The notes beneath the pieces are model-generated. The model was not told where the DNA came from, ran no database searches, and saw nothing but the letters and a program-made list of their open reading frames with translations. A DNA stretch of 64,000 nt from Verrucomicrobiota bacterium (lineage in GTDB: Bacteria > Verrucomicrobiota > Kiritimatiellia > UBA8416 > JABMPJ01): NCBI GenBank assembly GCA_018648805.1, contig JABGQM010000001.1, positions 101,896-165,895 of the forward strand, written 5' to 3'. Shown here in pieces: positions 3,229-60,825 of this stretch. Numbering within the stretch: the first letter of the stretch is position 1; the number at the start of each line of letters is the position of its first letter. The translations under genes and the position numbers were made by a program.

Positions 3229-4515
3229 GTGACATACGGCGTGTATTCTGATGGTGCAGCTGATATGTTCAGTCGCAATCCGACTCGGGATATGATGATG
3301 CCAACCACGCTTTCAACCAATGTGATCACGCAGCTGCGCCGGACCTACCGCGAGGCGTACGATCTGACTAGTCTGCCGATCTCGGGAAACGGCGTCATTA
3401 CAGACCGCAACCGGAGTTCGGCCCTTCGCAACAACGCTATTTTCTGCCGTGCCCGCGCCCACGCCCTGCAGGAAGCCGTGCGCTGGGGTGAACCCTATGC
3501 CCTCTTCCTGGCGCCCGGCCTAATGACCTGGGTGATTCCGCTAGTGAACGGCGAGGAACTGGCCGGCGGTGTTAGCGGGGGTGAAGTCCGGATCGAGGAA
3601 GACGCCACCGACAGCACCGAGCTGGTCAACTTCATCGTATCCGCCGGGGTTAGTCGCAAAGCCGCCGCGGCCTACGTATCCAAGGTGCCCGCTTGGCCGC
3701 AACCGCGCGTACACGAGGCCGCCGCCAGCCTGTTCGAATCGTTCTACCAGCTCAGTGGCTGGACCCCCGCCCTCCTGACGCGTAACCGGATGAATGCGCT
3801 GCAGCAACGCCAGATCGCCGAGGTGATCCACGAGCGCAAGCGCCAGCCGCACTCGGCCTATCCCCTCGAAGAGGAGCGTATCCTGCTGTCGCTAATCCGG
3901 GTGGGCAACCGTGCCGGGGCACGCAGCATGCTCAACACGATGCTGGCCGCGATCTATCTCTACTCGCCACGTGAGGCGGTGATCCGCGCACGCATCATCG
4001 AAATGATGGGCTACCTGGTACGGGCCGCCGTGGAGGACAGTCCGCTCCTTGAACCGCTCCTCGAGCGACAGCAGAAGTGGATGGAACAGGTCTTCACGAC
4101 GGATGGGTTCGAATCGCTCTGCGTCGTGGTGCGCAAGGCGCTGGACGATTTCATGGACAGCATCTTTGAGCAGGGCTATGGCCGCACCAATAAGAAAGTC
4201 CGCAAAGCCATGGACTACGTGGCAGAGCATTTCACCGAGGACCTGCGCCTGGAGGACGTGGCCGCACATGTCGAGCTGAGTACGTTCCGCATCGCCCACA
4301 TGGTTAAAGACTTCACCGGACGCACCATTCTTCAGCAGGTCAAGCGGCTGCGTACGGAGAAAGCGCGCCGGCTACTCGAAGATACCACGCTGACCTGTGC
4401 CGAGATTGCCTACGAGGTGGGCTTTTCCGACCAGAGCTTCTTTACACGCCAGTTCCGCGAAATGACCGGCACCACGCCCGCCAGGTACCGCCGTGAACGA
4501 CGCGAGATCACGTGA
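3229..4515 (+). CDS. AraC-family transcriptional regulator (large N-terminal sensing domain + C-terminal dual HTH)
   Basis: C-terminal AraC HTH (…EIAYEVGFSDQSFFTRQFREMTGTTPARYR); paralogous to 8582..9790; start may be internal (3265 or 3292). Confidence 0.8.
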   Translation: MTYGVYSDGAADMFSRNPTRDMMMPTTLSTNVITQLRRTYREAYDLTSLPISGNGVITDRNRSSALRNNAIFCRARAHALQEAVRWGEPYALFLAPGLMTWVIPLVNGEELAGGVSGGEVRIEEDATDSTELVNFIVSAGVSRKAAAAYVSKVPAWPQPRVHEAAASLFESFYQLSGWTPALLTRNRMNALQQRQIAEVIHERKRQPHSAYPLEEERILLSLIRVGNRAGARSMLNTMLAAIYLYSPREAVIRARIIEMMGYLVRAAVEDSPLLEPLLERQQKWMEQVFTTDGFESLCVVVRKALDDFMDSIFEQGYGRTNKKVRKAMDYVAEHFTEDLRLEDVAAHVELSTFRIAHMVKDFTGRTILQQVKRLRTEKARRLLEDTTLTCAEIAYEVGFSDQSFFTRQFREMTGTTPARYRRERREIT

Positions 4516-4593
4516 GTTTATAACGTTCAAATGTTAACGCCTGAACGCACAGGCATGAACCCGGAAAGGACAATTGGCAAGCACGAGTGTCTT

Positions 4594-4763
4594 CACACTT
4601 AAGCCCACACTTGATCGCACACTTCGTCGCCACCCTTCGTTGGTTACGCTTAGTCGAACGGCTTAGTCGCTCAGCGACATAGATTGACGATCAAGCGGGT
4701 CGACTAGGTGTAACCAAGTAAGTGTGAGATTAAGTGTGGGACTAAGTGTCCGCTTAAGTGTGG
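4594..4763 (+). repeat. MITE-like imperfect palindromic repeat element, copy 1 (ends CACACTTAAG … CTTAAGTGTG)
   Basis: ~170 bp; a near-identical ~55 bp core (caagcgggtcgactaggtgtaaccaagtaagtgtga[g/a]attaagtgtgggactaagtgt) is shared with copy 2 at 17210-17395; internal cttagtcg / ttaagtgtg sub-repeats; lies ~130 bp upstream of the HK gene. Confidence 0.6.
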
Positions 4764-4921
4764 ATGGTAACCCATCCCCTTGGATACTACATTGTCGATC
4801 TGCTGCTGGGCGTTGCCCAACATGTGGACGATGCCCATGAGTTTCACCTGCTTTTCCGATTGGACCTGATCCGGCCGGGTAGGTAGTATGGACCGGTTGG
4901 CGAACATGCGGGAGTAGCAGT

Positions 4922-6109
4922 ATGAGCACGGAAAACCGGGACGACCTCATCCAGGCCAAGCGGCAGCTCAACAATGTGCTGCGCGAGTGCCACGAAAAAG
5001 AAGTTTTCAACTTCGCCCTCTTTCAGCACAACCCCTCCGCCATCACCGTGGTCGACAAGGACGGCAAGGTGGTCAAGAGCAACCTGGCCCGCCGACATGC
5101 ACACGATCCGCTGCCCGAACTCGGGCACACGCTTTTCTCGGGCGAATCGGAGTGTGACGTCATCATGAAGTCGGAGCTGAAGAAGGTGCTCGCGCAGAAC
5201 ACGGTGCGCGAGGTGTCGGACGTGCGCGCCGGCGGCCACATCTACGCCTTTACGCTGGCCCCTTTCGCTCACGGGGTGATCGTCATCCGCCAGGACATCA
5301 CCGAACACAAGCGCGCTGAGGCCCAGCTCGTGCAAGCCCAGAAACTGGCCGCCCTCGGCACGCTGGTCTCCGGCGTGGCGCACGAGGTGAGCAATCCCAA
5401 CAACGTCATGCTGCTCGGCCTCAAGACACTGCGACGCGTGGTGGACGACCTGCTGCCGGTGCTGGATGCACACCGGGAACAGGCGGGCGACTTCGAGGTC
5501 GGCATCGGCCCCTACAGCGAGTTCCGCGAGGAGCTTCCCGAAATGGTCGACTCCTGCTATCGCGCCGCGGAGCGCATCAACCGGCTTGTGACCGATCTCA
5601 AGGGGTATGCGCGCAAGGATGAGGGCGAAGCGCATGTGCCTTTCGACATCAATACCGTTGTGCAGAGCGCGGCCGACCTGATGGGCTCCACCATCCGCAA
5701 GGCCACACATAACTTTATTCTCGACTGTGCCGACGATCTGCCGCCGGTCCACGGGGCGGCCCGCCGCATCGAACAGGTCATCATCAACCTGCTGAGCAAC
5801 GCCTGCCAGGCTCTGCCCCGCCAGGACGGCCACATCACGGTGTCGACCGCTTACAACCGCGCCGCCAAGGAAGTACATGTGCGCGTCCAGGACGACGGCG
5901 TCGGCATTCCGCCCGAAGCTCTCTCGCAGATTACGGATCCCTTTTTCACCACCAAGCATGACACCGGCGGCACCGGGTTGGGCCTTTCGATCTCACGGCA
6001 GATTGCCGACAACCACGGTGGGGCCCTGGTATTCAGTTCGGCTGGCGGTCGCGGCGCCCTCGTGACGCTGACCCTTCCCGCCACGTCACACGAGGAACCC
6101 CACGCATGA
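4922..6109 (+). CDS. PAS-domain sensor histidine kinase (NtrB/ZraS-like)
   Basis: H-box HEVSNPNN, N/G1/G2 boxes (GGTGLGLSISRQIADNHGG); 4-bp overlap with the downstream response regulator. Confidence 0.85.
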   Translation: MSTENRDDLIQAKRQLNNVLRECHEKEVFNFALFQHNPSAITVVDKDGKVVKSNLARRHAHDPLPELGHTLFSGESECDVIMKSELKKVLAQNTVREVSDVRAGGHIYAFTLAPFAHGVIVIRQDITEHKRAEAQLVQAQKLAALGTLVSGVAHEVSNPNNVMLLGLKTLRRVVDDLLPVLDAHREQAGDFEVGIGPYSEFREELPEMVDSCYRAAERINRLVTDLKGYARKDEGEAHVPFDINTVVQSAADLMGSTIRKATHNFILDCADDLPPVHGAARRIEQVIINLLSNACQALPRQDGHITVSTAYNRAAKEVHVRVQDDGVGIPPEALSQITDPFFTTKHDTGGTGLGLSISRQIADNHGGALVFSSAGGRGALVTLTLPATSHEEPHA

Positions 6110-16201: not shown

Positions 16202-17059
16202 ATGAGTGTACCATTCAAGATTGAGCTGGAAGGCAAGACGGCGGTCGTCACCGGGGGCGGGGGCGTATTGTGCAGCACGATGGCCAAGGCATTGGCTGAG
16301 TGTGGCGCCAAGGTTGCGGTGGCAGATTTGCGGATCGATGCGGCCGAGACGGTGGCCAAAGAGATCACAGCCGCCGGCGGCACCGCCATCGGCGTGGAGT
16401 GCAACGTATTGGAGCGGGCCAGTCTCGATGCGGCACGTGAGCGGATTGAAGCCGAGCTGGGCCCGGTCGATATCCTGATCAATGGCGCCGGGGGCAATCA
16501 TCCCAAGGGCACGACCTCGATGGAGTTTCTGACCGAGGAGGTCTTGAAGCAGGCCGGTTCGGACGACACCACCTTCTTTGACCTGGATCCGGACGGCATA
16601 CAGTTCGTCTTTAACCTGAACTTCCTCGGAACGCTTCTGCCGTCACAGGCGTTTGCGCGCGGCATGGCCGAGCGGGGTGGGGGGGTCATCATCAACACCT
16701 CCTCGATGAACGCGTTTACGCCCCTGACGAAGATTCCGGCTTACAGCGGTGCCAAGGCGGCGGTGAGCAATTTCACGCAGTGGCTGGCGGTGCATATGTC
16801 AAAGGTGGGGATTCGGGTGAACGCGATTGCGCCGGGCTTCTTCCTGACCGATCAGAACCGCTCGCTCCTGACGAACGAGGACGGATCGCCGACGGCGCGC
16901 GGTGGCCAGATTATCGGGCAGACCCCGCTGGGCCGCTACGGCACACCAGAGGAGCTGGTGGGGACGTTGTTGTGGCTGGTGTCGGATCAGGCGGCGGGAT
17001 TTGTGACGGGGACGGTGATTCCAGTGGATGGAGGATTTTCGGCTTTTAGCGGCGTTTAG
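16202..17059 (+). CDS. short-chain dehydrogenase/reductase (mannonate/fructuronate oxidoreductase-like SDR)
   Basis: TGGGGVLC Rossmann motif, NGAGG, catalytic YSGAK; start taken at MSVPFK. Confidence 0.85.
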   Translation: MSVPFKIELEGKTAVVTGGGGVLCSTMAKALAECGAKVAVADLRIDAAETVAKEITAAGGTAIGVECNVLERASLDAARERIEAELGPVDILINGAGGNHPKGTTSMEFLTEEVLKQAGSDDTTFFDLDPDGIQFVFNLNFLGTLLPSQAFARGMAERGGGVIINTSSMNAFTPLTKIPAYSGAKAAVSNFTQWLAVHMSKVGIRVNAIAPGFFLTDQNRSLLTNEDGSPTARGGQIIGQTPLGRYGTPEELVGTLLWLVSDQAAGFVTGTVIPVDGGFSAFSGV

Positions 17060-17073
17060 AGCTATGCAGCGCT

Positions 17074-17151
17074 CCGGCTCAGGCGAGGGTTTCTTGGCTG
17101 GGGAGCGTGGAATACCACGCTCAAGGCCTACGAAACCCTCGCCTGAGCCGG
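17074..17151. repeat. nested perfect hairpin: 20-bp stem ccggctcaggcgagggtttc / gaaaccctcgcctgagccgg enclosing an 8-bp stem gagcgtgg-aata-ccacgctc
   Basis: Direct reading; immediately 3' of the SDR gene, no T-tract; abuts MITE-like copy 2. Confidence 0.5.
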
Positions 17152-17209
17152 AGCTGGGGGTAGGAGTAAACGCCTTGGGGGGTGCCTCATTAGTGGGGGG
17201 AGAATTTGT

Positions 17210-17395
17210 ACACTTAAACGCACACTTGATCGCACTCTTAGTCGCCACCCTTAGTCGGATACGCTTAGTCGAACTGCTTAGTCGCCGGATCTGCCCGGAA
17301 AAAGGAATACAGTGATTTACGACCAAGCGGGTCGACTAGGTGTAACCAAGTAAGTGTGAAATTAAGTGTGGGACTAAGTGTACGATGAAGTGTGA
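17210..17395 (+). repeat. MITE-like imperfect palindromic repeat element, copy 2
   Basis: Shares the ~55 bp core and arm structure with copy 1; ~75 bp upstream of gnd. Confidence 0.6.
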
Positions 17396-17471
17396 ACGGC
17401 AGAGCCAATGGCGGAGAGTGTGAAAATGACCCCGCCCTGTGTGGGGAGATAGTATAAGAGAAGGAGTCACG

Positions 17472-18926
<1,455 letters not shown>

Positions 18927-18932
18927 ACACAC

Positions 18933-18975
18933 AACGGGCGCCAGAATTCATCGTGAACTCTGGCGCCCGTTTTCT
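18933..18975. terminator. bidirectional rho-independent terminator between gnd and the convergent OMP gene
   Basis: aacgggcgccaga-(13 nt)-tctggcgcccgtt hairpin followed by TTTTCT. Confidence 0.65.
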
Positions 18976-18991
18976 ATCCAGCCCTCGTTCT

Positions 18992-57324: not shown

Positions 57325-58758
57325 ATGCTGTCCGCTTCAAGCTGTTCGGGGCTCTCACGCGCCCTGCTCATTGGTGTGGCGGCGGTGCCGCTGGGCTATG
57401 CCGGTGCCGCCGCCCTCGCTTCGCGCTGCCGGACGATTCGGCTGGCGGCCTGGGGCGGTGCCGTGGCCTGTTTCTTTGCCCCGCCGCTTCTGACGGGCTA
57501 TGCCTATGCTAATTTCACAGGACTGCCCGGTGTTGCGTCCTCCGTGCGCAGTCTGTGCTATGGACTGCTGGTTCTGGCGCGTCTGCTCCCTGTGGCGGCC
57601 GTGCTCTGGTTGATCTGTCCGGGCCAGGTGTCGCGTGAGGCGTGGCATGCCGTGCGGCTGGCGTGGCCGCGTCTCACTCACCGGATGCGCCTGGTACACG
57701 CCTGGCAGCAGCTCTGTCACGGGTCCGCGGCGACGGCGGCGGCCGTGCTGGGGGCGGTCTTTGTACTGGCCTTCACTGAATTCGAGCTGGCCGCCTTTCT
57801 GGGCGTGGAGCAGTGGACCGTAACGATCTTTGATGCACAGGTGGGCGGCATGTCGCTGGCCGCCTCGCTGCGCCGGGTCGCTCTGCCGGCCGCCATGGCC
57901 GGGGGGCTTGCCGTCGCGGTGGTGCTCGTCCTGCGTGCGTCGCGTCCCGTTGCGACCGGTGGCGCATCACCCCGCCGCGGGTGGGCGCCGGTCGGCCTCG
58001 CGGTGTTCATGGCGGGTGCCCTACTCGTGGCGGTGGTGCCCGGCGCGATCGTGGTGCGGGGCGTATGGCCGGGGGCATTGACGGCGTGGCGCGGATTCGG
58101 GCTGGGCCGTGAACTGGCCAGCAGCCTGCTGGTCGCTGCGGCCGCGGGAGGGTTGGCCTGCGTGGCAGCGGGGTTGGTCTGCCGGCGGTCACCCCGTCCG
58201 GGACGGCAGGCGCTACAGATGGCGGGTGTGATTGCGCTGCTCGTGCCGGGGTTGCTGGGCGGATTGGTTGTGGGCCTGCTCTTTTTAGCCATGCTGCAGG
58301 TGCCGCTGCTATGGATCCTGCGCAGCACGCCGCTGCCGCTGATCGTGGCGGCGTCCTTGATGGTGATGCCGGTGGCGCTGCTGATCCAGCTTCTGCTGCG
58401 CGGCCGTCGCCGCGTGGCCGATCTGCATCTGGCGCGGCTCCTGGCGGCGAGTCCGGATCCGGGCGTGCGCCGTCGCGCGACATCCCTCAGCTGGGTGCGC
58501 GGCAGCCGCCCCCTTTTCTGGGCGGCGGCCCTGCTGATCTACCAGGTGTTCTCCGACATCACGCTGGCCTCACTCTTGGCCCCGCTGCGTATGCCACTCG
58601 TGATGCCGCGGCTCTATAATTTTATGCATTACGGTCGCAGCGCGGTGTTGACCAGTTCGCTGCTGATTGCGGTTGTGGTGCCGCTCGCGGCCCTGACGTT
58701 GGCATCGTTCACCTACCGCATCTGGAGGGCACGGCATGCCGCCACTCTGGACATGTGA
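57325..58758 (+). CDS. ABC transporter permease (duplicated-TMD FbpB-like)
   Basis: ~12 TM helices, two permease repeats. Confidence 0.8.
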   Translation: MLSASSCSGLSRALLIGVAAVPLGYAGAAALASRCRTIRLAAWGGAVACFFAPPLLTGYAYANFTGLPGVASSVRSLCYGLLVLARLLPVAAVLWLICPGQVSREAWHAVRLAWPRLTHRMRLVHAWQQLCHGSAATAAAVLGAVFVLAFTEFELAAFLGVEQWTVTIFDAQVGGMSLAASLRRVALPAAMAGGLAVAVVLVLRASRPVATGGASPRRGWAPVGLAVFMAGALLVAVVPGAIVVRGVWPGALTAWRGFGLGRELASSLLVAAAAGGLACVAAGLVCRRSPRPGRQALQMAGVIALLVPGLLGGLVVGLLFLAMLQVPLLWILRSTPLPLIVAASLMVMPVALLIQLLLRGRRRVADLHLARLLAASPDPGVRRRATSLSWVRGSRPLFWAAALLIYQVFSDITLASLLAPLRMPLVMPRLYNFMHYGRSAVLTSSLLIAVVVPLAALTLASFTYRIWRARHAATLDM

Positions 58759-59692
58759 GGGGGTTGTGGTGAAGGGCGCCACGCGTCCGCGCCTCACCTG
58801 CGATGGCCTGCAGATCGAGTCCGGCATCACGGCCGTGCTGGGGGAATCGGGCGCAGGAAAGTCTACGCTGCTGAACCTGTTGGTCGGGTTTGCGCGTCCC
58901 GATGCGGGCCGCCTGCGGAGCGCGCTGCCCGAGGATGACGGCCGCCTTCCGCTTTTCTGGGTGCCGCAGAACGAAGGGCTGTGGCCGCACCTGCGTGTGG
59001 CCGCCCATGTGAGCAGCGTGCAGGCCGTCGGCGCGGCGGACGTGACCAAGCTGCTGCAGTCGATGGAGTTGTCCGGACTCGAAGCGCGCCATGTTGCAGA
59101 GCTCTCCGTAGGGGAGCAGTCCCGCCTAGCGGTGGCGCGGGCCGTGGCGGCCGATGCCGCCGTAACCGTTTTAGATGAACCCTTCGTGCATGTCGATCGC
59201 GCGCGCCGCGGCCTGTTGTGGCAACGCGTTGTAGCGAAGGCGCGGGCGGCCGGCACCTCGCTCGTTTTTGCCACGCATTCAGCGCGCATGGTGTTGGGAT
59301 TCGCCGAGCAGGTGGTGCTCCTGCGTGAGGGTGCCGTGATTGCCGCCGGTAGCGTGGATGCGCTTTACTGGCAACCGGCCACCCCCGCGATTGCCGAGGC
59401 GCTCGGGCCAGTCAACTGGCTGGCCGCGGACGAGGCGGCCATCTGGCTGCCGGGCGGCGCAGAGAAACGCAACTACCGTCCCTGTGAGCTGCAGCTCGAA
59501 GCGGCGGAGGCGGACGCCCCGCTGCGAGTGGAGCGCGAACAATTCGGTGGCGAGGTCAGCGAGGTGACGCTGGTGCATGTTGCGAGAGGCCGGCAGCGCA
59601 GTTTCTGTCTCTTGCCCGGCACCCCGCTCCCGTCCGGTTCGCCCGTGCGGCTGAGTGCGCGGCCCTGCCGCAGCGCGGGAGGTGTCGCATGA
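58736..59692 (+). CDS. ABC transporter ATP-binding protein
   Basis: Walker A GESGAGKST, ABC signature LSVGEQSR, Walker B VTVLDEP. Confidence 0.85.
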   Translation: MPPLWTCEGVVVKGATRPRLTCDGLQIESGITAVLGESGAGKSTLLNLLVGFARPDAGRLRSALPEDDGRLPLFWVPQNEGLWPHLRVAAHVSSVQAVGAADVTKLLQSMELSGLEARHVAELSVGEQSRLAVARAVAADAAVTVLDEPFVHVDRARRGLLWQRVVAKARAAGTSLVFATHSARMVLGFAEQVVLLREGAVIAAGSVDALYWQPATPAIAEALGPVNWLAADEAAIWLPGGAEKRNYRPCELQLEAAEADAPLRVEREQFGGEVSEVTLVHVARGRQRSFCLLPGTPLPSGSPVRLSARPCRSAGGVA

Positions 59693-59770
59693 GGGGGTGG
59701 CTTCTGGTTTCAGTTGGCGCATTACATATGATACTGCGAGGCAGAAAGTCTGTTCCCCGTGGGCGCAAAC

Positions 59771-59916
59771 GACACTTAACCGCCACCTTTACTCGGATAC
59801 CCTTAACCGACTCACTTCAACGAGAAGCGGCCGGAAAACGAGAGAGTCGATCGTTTAAGGGTATCCGAGTAAGGGTAGCGAGTAAGGGTCCGCTTAAGTG
59901 TGCGCTTAAGTGTGTT
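59771..59916 (+). repeat. MITE-like imperfect palindromic repeat element, copy 3 (divergent)
   Basis: Same termini (cacttaa… / …ccgcttaagtgtg) and palindromic arm structure as copies 1 and 2, with variant arms built from cttactcgg sub-repeats; directly upstream of the NHL lipoprotein gene. Confidence 0.5.
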
Positions 59917-59931
59917 TGCTGTGTGGTTCAA

Positions 59932-60825
59932 GTGTTCTTCTTCGTTTCAGTTGCGGCCGCGCTTGTGGCGGGCTGCGGCGGGCGGACCGATCCGGTGCCG
60001 TTCGAGCATGAGGCGGTCTGGCGTATGGCGCCTTCGGAGACAGGCATTCCCGCGCCGCGCAGTCTCTGTGTGGCGAAAAATGGCGAGCTGTACGTACTGG
60101 ATACGATCGGGCGCGTACTGGTGTATGGACCCCGCGGCGCGTTGGCGCGGCAGTGGAGTATGCCTGAAACATCGGTCGGTCGCCCCGAAGGCGTTGTGGA
60201 GTTGCGCGACGGCTCCATCCTGGTGGCCGACACGCACTATCATCGCCTGGTCCGCTTCAGTTCGAGCGGTGAGGTGCTCTCGATGTGGGGCGGCAAGGGC
60301 GAGGGCCCCGGCGAATTCATTTACCCGGTGGCTGTGACACAGGATCCGGCCGGGCTCATCTACGTGGCGGAGTATGGCGGCAACGATCGCATCCAGGTCT
60401 TTTCGGAAACGGGGGAGCTGCTGCGCAGCTTCGGGAGTTTTGGCACCGGCGAGGGGCAGCTGCAGCGCTGTTCGGGTTTGGCTTACACGGGGGGACGTCT
60501 CTACGTGGCGGATGCGATCAACAACCGCGTGCAGGTCTACACGCCGCAGGGCGAGCTCGTGGCCAGCTATACACGGCCGGGCGATGTGCCGTTTCGTTTT
60601 CCCTATGATATCGCCGTCACACCGGCCGGCACGTTGGCGGTGATCGAGTACACGGCCGGCCGCATCAGCGTGATCAATCCAGATGGCAGCCTGGTGGGCC
60701 GCTACGGCCGCACCGGACGCGGCGAGGGGGCGTTCGCCACGCCGTGGGGCATTGCGGCGGGCGCCGACGGCCGCATCTTCGTGGCGGATACGGGCAACCA
60801 TCGTATCGTGGTGGTGCGCCCATGA
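59932..60825 (+). CDS. NHL-repeat (six-bladed beta-propeller) lipoprotein
   Basis: Lipobox LVAGCGG; repeated NHL blades (YHRLVRF, NDRIQVF, NNRVQVY, NHRIVVV); the track ORF opens at 59689 but its 5' part is the repeat element, so a GTG start near 59932 is more plausible. Confidence 0.65.
   Translation: MFFFVSVAAALVAGCGGRTDPVPFEHEAVWRMAPSETGIPAPRSLCVAKNGELYVLDTIGRVLVYGPRGALARQWSMPETSVGRPEGVVELRDGSILVADTHYHRLVRFSSSGEVLSMWGGKGEGPGEFIYPVAVTQDPAGLIYVAEYGGNDRIQVFSETGELLRSFGSFGTGEGQLQRCSGLAYTGGRLYVADAINNRVQVYTPQGELVASYTRPGDVPFRFPYDIAVTPAGTLAVIEYTAGRISVINPDGSLVGRYGRTGRGEGAFATPWGIAAGADGRIFVADTGNHRIVVVRP

Follow-up and report, generated by a model that had tools for sequence, protein, structure and literature searches.

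The described MITEs include the Rickettsia palindromic elements, Correia/NEMIS and Nezha, and some of these are inserted in frame in genes. REP and BIME elements are built from a self-complementary unit of 20-40 nt, occur in alternating extragenic clusters and are connected with RAYT, a Y1 transposase. IS110/IS1111 elements often target REPs. In the En/Spm transposon, subterminal 12-bp motifs are bound by a transposon protein. Proteins of the PF05635/S23p type are, to our knowledge, very widespread, and we know of no function for them outside diversity-generating retroelements (Avd). Likewise, we know of no resolved account of how rRNA intervening sequences (IVS) spread. The IVS in the 23S rRNA of Coxiella and Leptospira are excised by RNase III, and in Coxiella the S23p ORF, whose product is probably not expressed, lies in an IVS with a terminal stem and short tandem repeats; the S23p protein of X. 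campestris (2GSC) is a homopentameric toroid (PMC4990558).

Three copies of a palindromic repeat were analyzed in the stretch of 64,000 nucleotides studied here, which we call the window, and their coordinates agree with those of the original prediction. These copies probably belong to a Lentisphaerota-specific family of mobile 'foldback' repeats with a mosaic structure, of which they would be non-autonomous members without a gene. All three palindromes have their arm tips outward (form A):

4594..4763, no strand assigned: palindrome of copy 1, form A, with the left arm at about 4594-4671, the loop at about 4672-4687 and the right arm at about 4688-4763
17210..17395, no strand assigned: palindrome of copy 2, form A, with the left arm at 17210-17285, a loop, and the right arm at 17318-17395
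59771..59916, no strand assigned: palindrome of copy 3, form A, with arms at 59771-59822 and 59851-59916

The copies had been described as long imperfect palindromes with internal tandem sub-repeats, and this description holds. They are inverted repeats whose arms pair over 30-40 nt at 77-87% complementarity and in further registers, and the sub-repeats inside them have a 12-nt spacing. The arms are built of 5-6 repeated units each, with a unit length of about 12 nt (ACACTTA.. / ..TAAGTGT). The sequence is (C)ACACTTnnnCG in the left arm and the complement, ..TAAGTGT.., in the right arm. In 148 arms of the family, self-identity was maximal at lags 12-13, with values of 0.41 and 0.39 vs about 0.2-0.3 at other lags. 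An arm is 65-75 bp long and has a 'base' (..CGAnnAAGCGGG..) and a 'tip' (..TAAGTGTG). In the window copies the two arms stand tail-to-tail with the bases beside a short loop and the tips outward, which gives a hairpin-forming palindrome of 146-186 bp, or 227-318 bp including the flanks. The sequence CTTAAGTGTG, allowing at most one mismatch, occurs six times in the window vs 1.5 expected, and all six occurrences lie within the three copies. For copies 1 and 2 a near-identical core of about 55 bp had been reported; we find 57 nt in common with one mismatch. The right arms of these two copies are 92% identical, and copy 3 is 70-75% identical to either. Searches of the 64-kb window with blastn-short and with an nhmmer arm profile revealed no further family copies.

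Folding of the single strands was calculated next to dinucleotide shuffles. The energies for copies 1, 2 and 3 were -94, -78 and -70 kcal/mol (z = -10.6, -6.9 and -8.3), and in each case none of 200 shuffles was as stable. Six-frame translation of the copies gave no real ORF. The peptide said to be common to the antisense ORFs 4663..5010 and 17265..17642, RTLSPTLN(L/F)TLTWLHLVDPL, is indeed present in both.

The copies had also been placed 75-130 bp ahead of a start codon. This is correct for copy 2, which lies 76 nt upstream of ATG 17472, and incorrect for copy 1, which lies 158 nt upstream of ATG 4922, as well as for copy 3, which lies inside an ORF. All three are situated between co-directional genes, so that each is equally downstream of one gene and upstream of another. 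Elsewhere in the window, the segment 36000-48000 has a GC content of 0.53-0.54 vs 0.56-0.67 in the remainder; this low-GC segment may be horizontally acquired.

Copy 3 and its surroundings comprise the following features:

59717..59943, no strand assigned: whole copy-3 insertion of 227 bp, made up of a 54-nt left flank, the palindrome 59771-59916 and a 27-nt right flank
59707..59716, no strand assigned: left 10-bp direct repeat GTTTCAGTTG, perfect, a putative target-site duplication, at a spacing of 237 from its partner
59944..59953, no strand assigned: right 10-bp direct repeat GTTTCAGTTG, a perfect match to the left copy
59689..60825, + strand: NHL-repeat lipoprotein ORF of 378 aa, with ATG at 59689, interrupted by copy 3 without a shift of frame

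The closest homologues of the NHL protein, P0001 and P0002 (91% and 89% identity), have 299 aa and the N-termini MRRWLLVPIMAVLVAGC and MRGWLLVPIMAVLVAGC, and their loci (L147 and L148) are uninterrupted. The protein of the window starts with MRGWLLVSVG, followed by 79 extra aa and then by ..FFFVSVAAALVAGC. The insertion together with one copy of the direct repeat amounts to 237 bp or 79 codons. Since the difference between 378 and 299 codons is the exact spacing of the GTTTCAGTTG repeats, copy 3 corresponds to 227 bp of inserted sequence and a duplication of 10 bp. Inside the direct repeats the palindrome is bordered by 54 and 27 nt of unrelated flank, and no terminal inverted repeat is found there. 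Copy 3 is in frame and stop-free, in the sole open frame of the three, and the hydrophobic core and the lipobox (..VSVAAALVAGC) are intact after the insertion. These properties would explain why copy 3 is tolerated. The NHL signal peptide with its in-frame insertion is a natural example of a repeat absorbed into coding sequence. In the sequence ATGA, the NHL start codon at 59689 overlaps with the stop of the ABC ATPase gene that lies upstream. The start calls for the NHL gene differ, as ENA assemblies contain the 378-aa ORF from 59689 and the NCBI MAG record uses GTG 59923, just past the repeat. Nine contigs agree in the copy-3 region, and copy 3 is present in every assembly of the species that was found; it is thus fixed in the species. 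These data show that foldback elements are inherited after insertion. As an observation on the neighborhood, many Planctomycetota and Verrucomicrobiota homologues have the ABC ATPase and the NHL protein fused into one polypeptide of about 600 aa (PF00005 + PF01436); the corresponding window genes occupy 58736-60825.

Copies 1 and 2 are bordered by the following features:

4520..4593, no strand assigned: left flanking module of copy 1, with 97% identity over 68 nt to locus L172 and 90% to L194
4764..4837, no strand assigned: right flanking module of copy 1, common to L172 only
17193..17203, no strand assigned: left direct repeat of copy 2, imperfect 11 bp, GTGGGGGGAGA, with one mismatch to its partner, also in L236
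17396..17438, no strand assigned: tail from copy 2 to the right direct repeat, kept in L236 despite a different palindrome there
17439..17449, no strand assigned: right direct repeat of copy 2 and its tail, GTGTGGGGAGA, also in L236

The left module of copy 1 belongs to the repeated unit, because it is also present in the L172 and L194 elements. Around this unit there is a weak 7-bp direct repeat, TGAGTTT (4513-4519 and 4838-4844), of a length within the chance range. For copy 1, we found no close relative in which the site is empty and can be aligned. Copies 1 and 2 are homologous from tip to tip and not beyond. The tail of copy 2 opens with a remnant of a GAGAACGG-type unit, and BLAST against all loci gave no homologues of this tail or of the non-palindromic flanks of copy 3. 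The boundaries of the element are inconsistent: copies 1 and 2 are homologous tip-to-tip, copy 3 carries 54 + 27 nt of unique flank, and copy 1 has a 75-nt flank as in L172 and L194. The initial view that the palindrome tips are the element ends is supported by the homology of copies 1 and 2 and contradicted by the copy-3 insertion and by the comparison of copy 1 with L172. It is also at odds with the relatives bounded by terminal inverted repeats, which have the opposite polarity.

Orthologous sites were available for copy 2. This copy is identical and in the same position in six independent assemblies, and a gnd protein identical to that of the window is encoded by JABHCQ010000027 (MAG GCA_018673455.1) as well as by several metagenome contigs from ENA and JGI. 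The nearest named homologues come from 'Lentisphaerae bacterium' MAGs. In L233 (Gnd 93% identical) the site is a 94-nt spacer and the element is absent. In L236 (Gnd 96% identical) the same flanks enclose a different palindrome with 12-nt units of the GACGAGAACGG type; it lies at about 60-200, orthologous to window 17204-17395, and the GACGAGAACGG-type units replace those of the ACACTTA type. Units of the GACGAGAACGG type also adjoin TAAGTGT arms in L042, L097, L056 and L179, and the window contains no GACGAGAACGG-type arrays. Two other inverted repeats were noticed in the gnd region. A separate 124-bp palindrome at 17051-17174, with 60-nt arms of 75% complementarity and a 4-nt loop, begins in the last codons of an SDR gene, abuts copy 2 and is partly conserved in L236. 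A further inverted repeat at 18916-18988, with 35-nt arms and a 3-nt loop, lies at the gnd 3' end between convergent genes and may be a terminator or another repeat.

The spread of the family was determined by a genome scan with a three-unit pattern and one genome per species. Among the matches listed, true relatives were found only in Victivallales, Lentisphaerae/Lentisphaeria and one 'Kiritimatiellae' MAG, and these matches show multi-copy dispersal confined to one phylum. Many matches outside Lentisphaerota were rejected as family members, as they are plain TAAGTGT tandem arrays. In viral contigs the three-unit pattern gave 24 matches, all of them unrelated simple 12-mer tandem repeats and none a family member. 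Overall, arms were detected in at least 15 Lentisphaerota genome loci and, with a more specific pattern, in 84 metagenome loci. The arm profile revealed tail-to-tail pairs with a short loop (form A, 18 cases), head-to-head pairs (form B), solo arms and tandem arms. Solo arms do not form hairpins. Several arms on one contig were seen in L171, L177 and L102, and 84 of 139 units adjoin contig ends. Gene context could be classified for 55 units, of which 34 were tandem, 8 convergent, 9 divergent and 4 inside an ORF (51/55 intergenic). The strand of solo arms relative to transcription was 11:9, i.e. without bias. This dispersal pattern is the signature of a selfish repeat and not of a positioned regulatory site. 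In 16 tail-to-tail copies the hairpin is preserved, with compensatory changes at 7 of 32 consensus pairs (e.g. UA:7/CG:7 and AU:8/GC:6). Selection for pairing or a joint inheritance of the two arms would account for this, and the changes do not distinguish DNA from RNA.

Direct repeats of at least 9 bp flank 7 of 30 elements vs 6.6% in controls, a weak excess in which some of the seven are duplicate loci. Their length varies, with 10 bp (perfect) at copy 3, 11 bp with one mismatch at copy 2, 7 bp at copy 1 and 8 bp in a subfamily with terminal inverted repeats. This subfamily was found on the Ga0307990 metagenome contigs, where nine copies align over about 480 bp. The unit ends in 27-bp terminal inverted repeats, GGNTCYTCCGCAGAATCTGTGGGTA, and is bordered by 8-bp AT-rich duplications (ATAATTTA; GTAATTG[C/T]). 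Inside this unit the arms stand head-to-head, and their AAGCGGG 'base' faces the terminal repeat. A true terminal inverted repeat of 27 bp is confined to the subfamily of the Ga0307990 type, and none is present in the window. Together, the 10-bp duplication at copy 3 and the 27-bp inverted repeats with 8-bp duplications of the related subfamily show that foldback elements insert at new sites.

A cognate autonomous insertion sequence with the same ends was not found in a non-exhaustive search of about 240 loci. The distant arm pairs in L198, L110 and L150 were considered as borders of an autonomous element and rejected, as ordinary host genes lie between them. The transposases of L201 were rejected as the element's own enzyme as well. 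Here, within 210-2830, IS110-family (457-1707) and IS1595-family (1873-2700) genes are nested insertions in a head-to-head palindrome, which suggests that the palindromes are insertion targets. Beside another head-to-head palindrome, L042 carries at 1-100 tandem 42-bp repeats, each with a small hairpin (gcggagcaaaaggtttgtagttccgcctt[c/t]aggcggct); these are another repeat family in the same genomes. The literature on Lentisphaerae/Victivallales repeats and on PF05635 mobility yielded nothing describing the family, and the foldback repeat family of Lentisphaerota is apparently undescribed.

In several relatives the arms enclose a gene. The loci L195, L209 and L203 have a gene of 250-258 aa between two head-to-head arms, which abuts both tips, and L195 has terminal inverted repeats too. 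Arms also lie on either side of an S23p gene in L241 and L239, two more independent loci. The cassettes are located as follows:

L195 3153-4205: S23p cassette, arms bracket the gene
L241 3930-4833: S23p cassette, arms bracket the gene
L209, L203 and L239: further S23p cassettes, arms bracket the gene

Thus, in all five cassette loci inspected, two arms tightly flank a PF05635 gene of about 250 aa, at a distance of about 5-25 nt from the start and stop codons. This gene encodes two domains in tandem of the kind named 'four helix bundle protein' or '23S rRNA intervening sequence protein' (PF05635, TIGR02436). For the two proteins scanned, from L195 and L209, the PF05635 match had E = 1e-24 to 1e-28, and the sole PDB match of the cassette protein was 2GSC. 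The loci L151 and L189 are internal-deletion derivatives of the cassette. The protein family comprises at least 821 clusters at 90% identity (E <= 1e-10). Most of these lie on contigs with a length of about 1 kb, which is what a repeat that disrupts assembly should produce. The window arms are 76-84% identical to the gene-flanking arms, which is above the identity of copy 1 to copy 3. These loci show that the arms are physically linked to a multi-copy S23p gene in relatives. An HMM built from 120 homologues found no PF05635 gene among the window ORFs in the 64 kb, and conserved 16S/23S rRNA motifs were absent from all loci and from the window.

We then weighed other explanations. One proposal was that the histidine kinase, gnd and NHL genes are controlled by the copies, acting as a structured 5' leader or as a riboswitch-like or attenuator-type RNA in cis. 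The same nominal orientation of all three copies ahead of + strand genes and the strong predicted structure are in favor of this. Yet the comparison of the NHL and gnd orthologous sites excludes a conserved leader, as the element is absent there or replaced by another. In addition, the genes downstream of the three copies have unrelated functions, neither position nor strand is biased in the family, and copy 3 lies within an ORF. The Rfam check turned out negative, with no match at gathering threshold in the whole window. Permissive scans returned weak matches to miRNA hairpin models (17-32 bits vs 56-101 needed), all but one, and among them the strongest, on the palindrome 17051-17174; the exception is a marginal match (E 0.84) within copy 2. 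The two strands were compared by fold energy and by G-U pairs, which gave no consistent sign of strand-specific RNA selection between copies, and there is no consistent + strand excess of G-U pairs. A sigma-70-like promoter consensus had no match around the three copies, and two terminator-like matches, near copy 3 only, were within shuffle expectation. Thus we regard a regulatory leader as highly improbable. Chance similarity or an assembly artefact is more improbable still, and we practically dismiss it. Nothing favors it beyond the fact that the source is a metagenome-assembled genome, and the same element is in the same place in six independent assemblies at gnd and in nine contigs at the NHL locus, so the elements are not assembly artefacts. 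Fold z-scores and motif count lie beyond all shuffles, which speaks against chance.

Two further readings deserve more weight, although we consider both unlikely. The arms could be REP/BIME-like repeats maintained by the host, i.e. binding sites or RNA structures that the host exploits and that a RAYT-type or other domesticated enzyme spreads. They might protect mRNA 3' ends, let RNase III process the RNA between co-transcribed genes or bind a nucleoid protein. The mosaic use of solo, paired (in both orientations) and tandem arms is as in BIMEs, most copies are extragenic, one palindrome contains an IS110-family element, all three window copies stand between co-directional genes and the hairpins are very stable. 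However, the arm is a 65-75-bp array of direct units and not a self-complementary REP of 20-40 nt, no Y1/RAYT gene was noticed in a non-systematic look, presence is not conserved at orthologous sites, one copy is in a coding region and the 11:9 ratio of solo arms gives no strand bias with respect to transcription. Alternatively, and overlapping with the preferred reading, the double four-helix-bundle protein of the PF05635 (S23p) type may recognize the arms as its cognate nucleic acid. It would bind the arrays of 12-nt units, as DNA or as RNA stem, and drive the spread or processing of an IVS-like selfish cassette, and the window copies would be orphan binding arrays. The arms abut the gene in 5/5 cassette loci, there are 5-6 units per arm, the X. 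campestris protein is a homopentamer, and in the Coxiella IVS, too, an S23p ORF is accompanied by a terminal stem and short tandem repeats (PMC4990558). However, the window has arms and no PF05635 gene within 64 kb, the Coxiella protein is probably not even expressed (PMC4990558), and the gene could be mere cargo. A bolder version, which we likewise consider unlikely, would make the arms the S23p recognition array. Arms and gene together would then form a hitherto unrecognized and highly successful selfish cassette of PVC bacteria, a free-living counterpart of the 23S rRNA IVS. Its transcribed stems would be cut by RNase III, and the window copies would be orphan stems, one of them absorbed in frame in a lipoprotein signal peptide.

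We therefore return to the mobile foldback family as the preferred reading. The MITE-like or REP-like nature suggested originally is supported by a dispersed multi-copy repeat that breaks assemblies and is absent or replaced at orthologous sites in close relatives. The window copies would be mobilised in trans by an enzyme encoded outside the element, and their position beside the histidine kinase, gnd and NHL genes would be incidental. In related genomes the family also includes the same arms head-to-head around an S23p gene, gene-less deletion derivatives, solo arms and tandem arms. If co-transcribed, the copies are predicted to yield near-perfect RNA duplexes of about 70 bp as RNase III substrates, and these duplexes could uncouple or destabilise the flanking mRNA halves. 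Several findings count against a mobile family. The tail-to-tail order in the window is the inverse of the arm order around the gene, no element-owned transposase was found, the window has neither the 27-bp terminal inverted repeat nor a PF05635 gene, the element boundaries are inconsistent, the excess of flanking direct repeats is weak, and copy 1 has no known empty site in a close relative.

The repeats have practical consequences. They fragment Lentisphaerota assemblies, generate spurious ORFs such as 4663..5010 and 17265..17642 and cause the conflicting NHL starts (59689 / 59923), and masking of the foldback family would improve MAG annotation. The same arms with and without a gene, in hundreds of copies and outside rRNA, are a concrete system for the study of S23p binding, mobility and RNA processing. 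The interest would be higher if the partnership of S23p and arms proves functional.

In comparison with known systems, the MITEs share with this family a small size (< ~600 bp) and a non-coding, palindromic, multi-copy nature; there are three copies in the 64 kb and many per contig or metagenome in relatives. Empty sites in relatives (NHL in L147 and L148; the 94-nt gnd spacer of L233) and target duplications at copy 3 and in the terminal-inverted-repeat subfamily are further similarities, and the in-frame insertion of copy 3 in a protein-coding gene resembles the Rickettsia palindromic elements. Unlike in MITEs, we found no parent insertion sequence whose ends match, and both the ends and the length of the duplication vary, with 8 bp, 10 bp or, at the tips of copies 1 and 2, no evident duplication. 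In the terminal-inverted-repeat subfamily the repeated module has an internal or subterminal position. Proteobacterial REP/BIME elements are similar in their mosaic extragenic use, with a module that is solo or paired in either orientation, in stable hairpins between co-transcribed genes and in being a target of IS110-family insertion; in contrast, the module here is a tandem array and not a short self-complementary REP, and the phylum is different. Long inverted arms made of tandem short sub-repeats are also known from the eukaryotic Foldback and CACTA (En/Spm) transposons, but these belong to another domain of life and have no sequence homology, so that the analogy is one of architecture only.

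The 23S rRNA IVS with an S23p ORF from Coxiella, Leptospira and Brucella (PMC4990558) resemble the relatives in having an inverted-repeat stem with a PF05635 gene in the loop. As in the IVS, the relatives L195, L209, L203, L241 and L239 have short tandem repeats beside the ORF, are selfish and reach a high copy number, and in L151 and L189 the ORF is being eroded by deletions. The counterpart of the RNase III excision of IVS would be the predicted near-perfect duplexes of about 70 bp. In contrast to the IVS, which sit in helix 9, 25 or 45 of the 23S gene, the present elements lie outside rRNA. Their arms are 65-75-bp arrays of 12-nt units vs a simple 28-bp stem in the IVS, the gene of the relatives encodes a tandem double domain of about 250 aa, and the window copies are gene-less with arms in the inverse, tail-to-tail order. 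In summary, the family behaves as a MITE/REP-type repeat and is architecturally related to the S23p-bearing intervening sequences.
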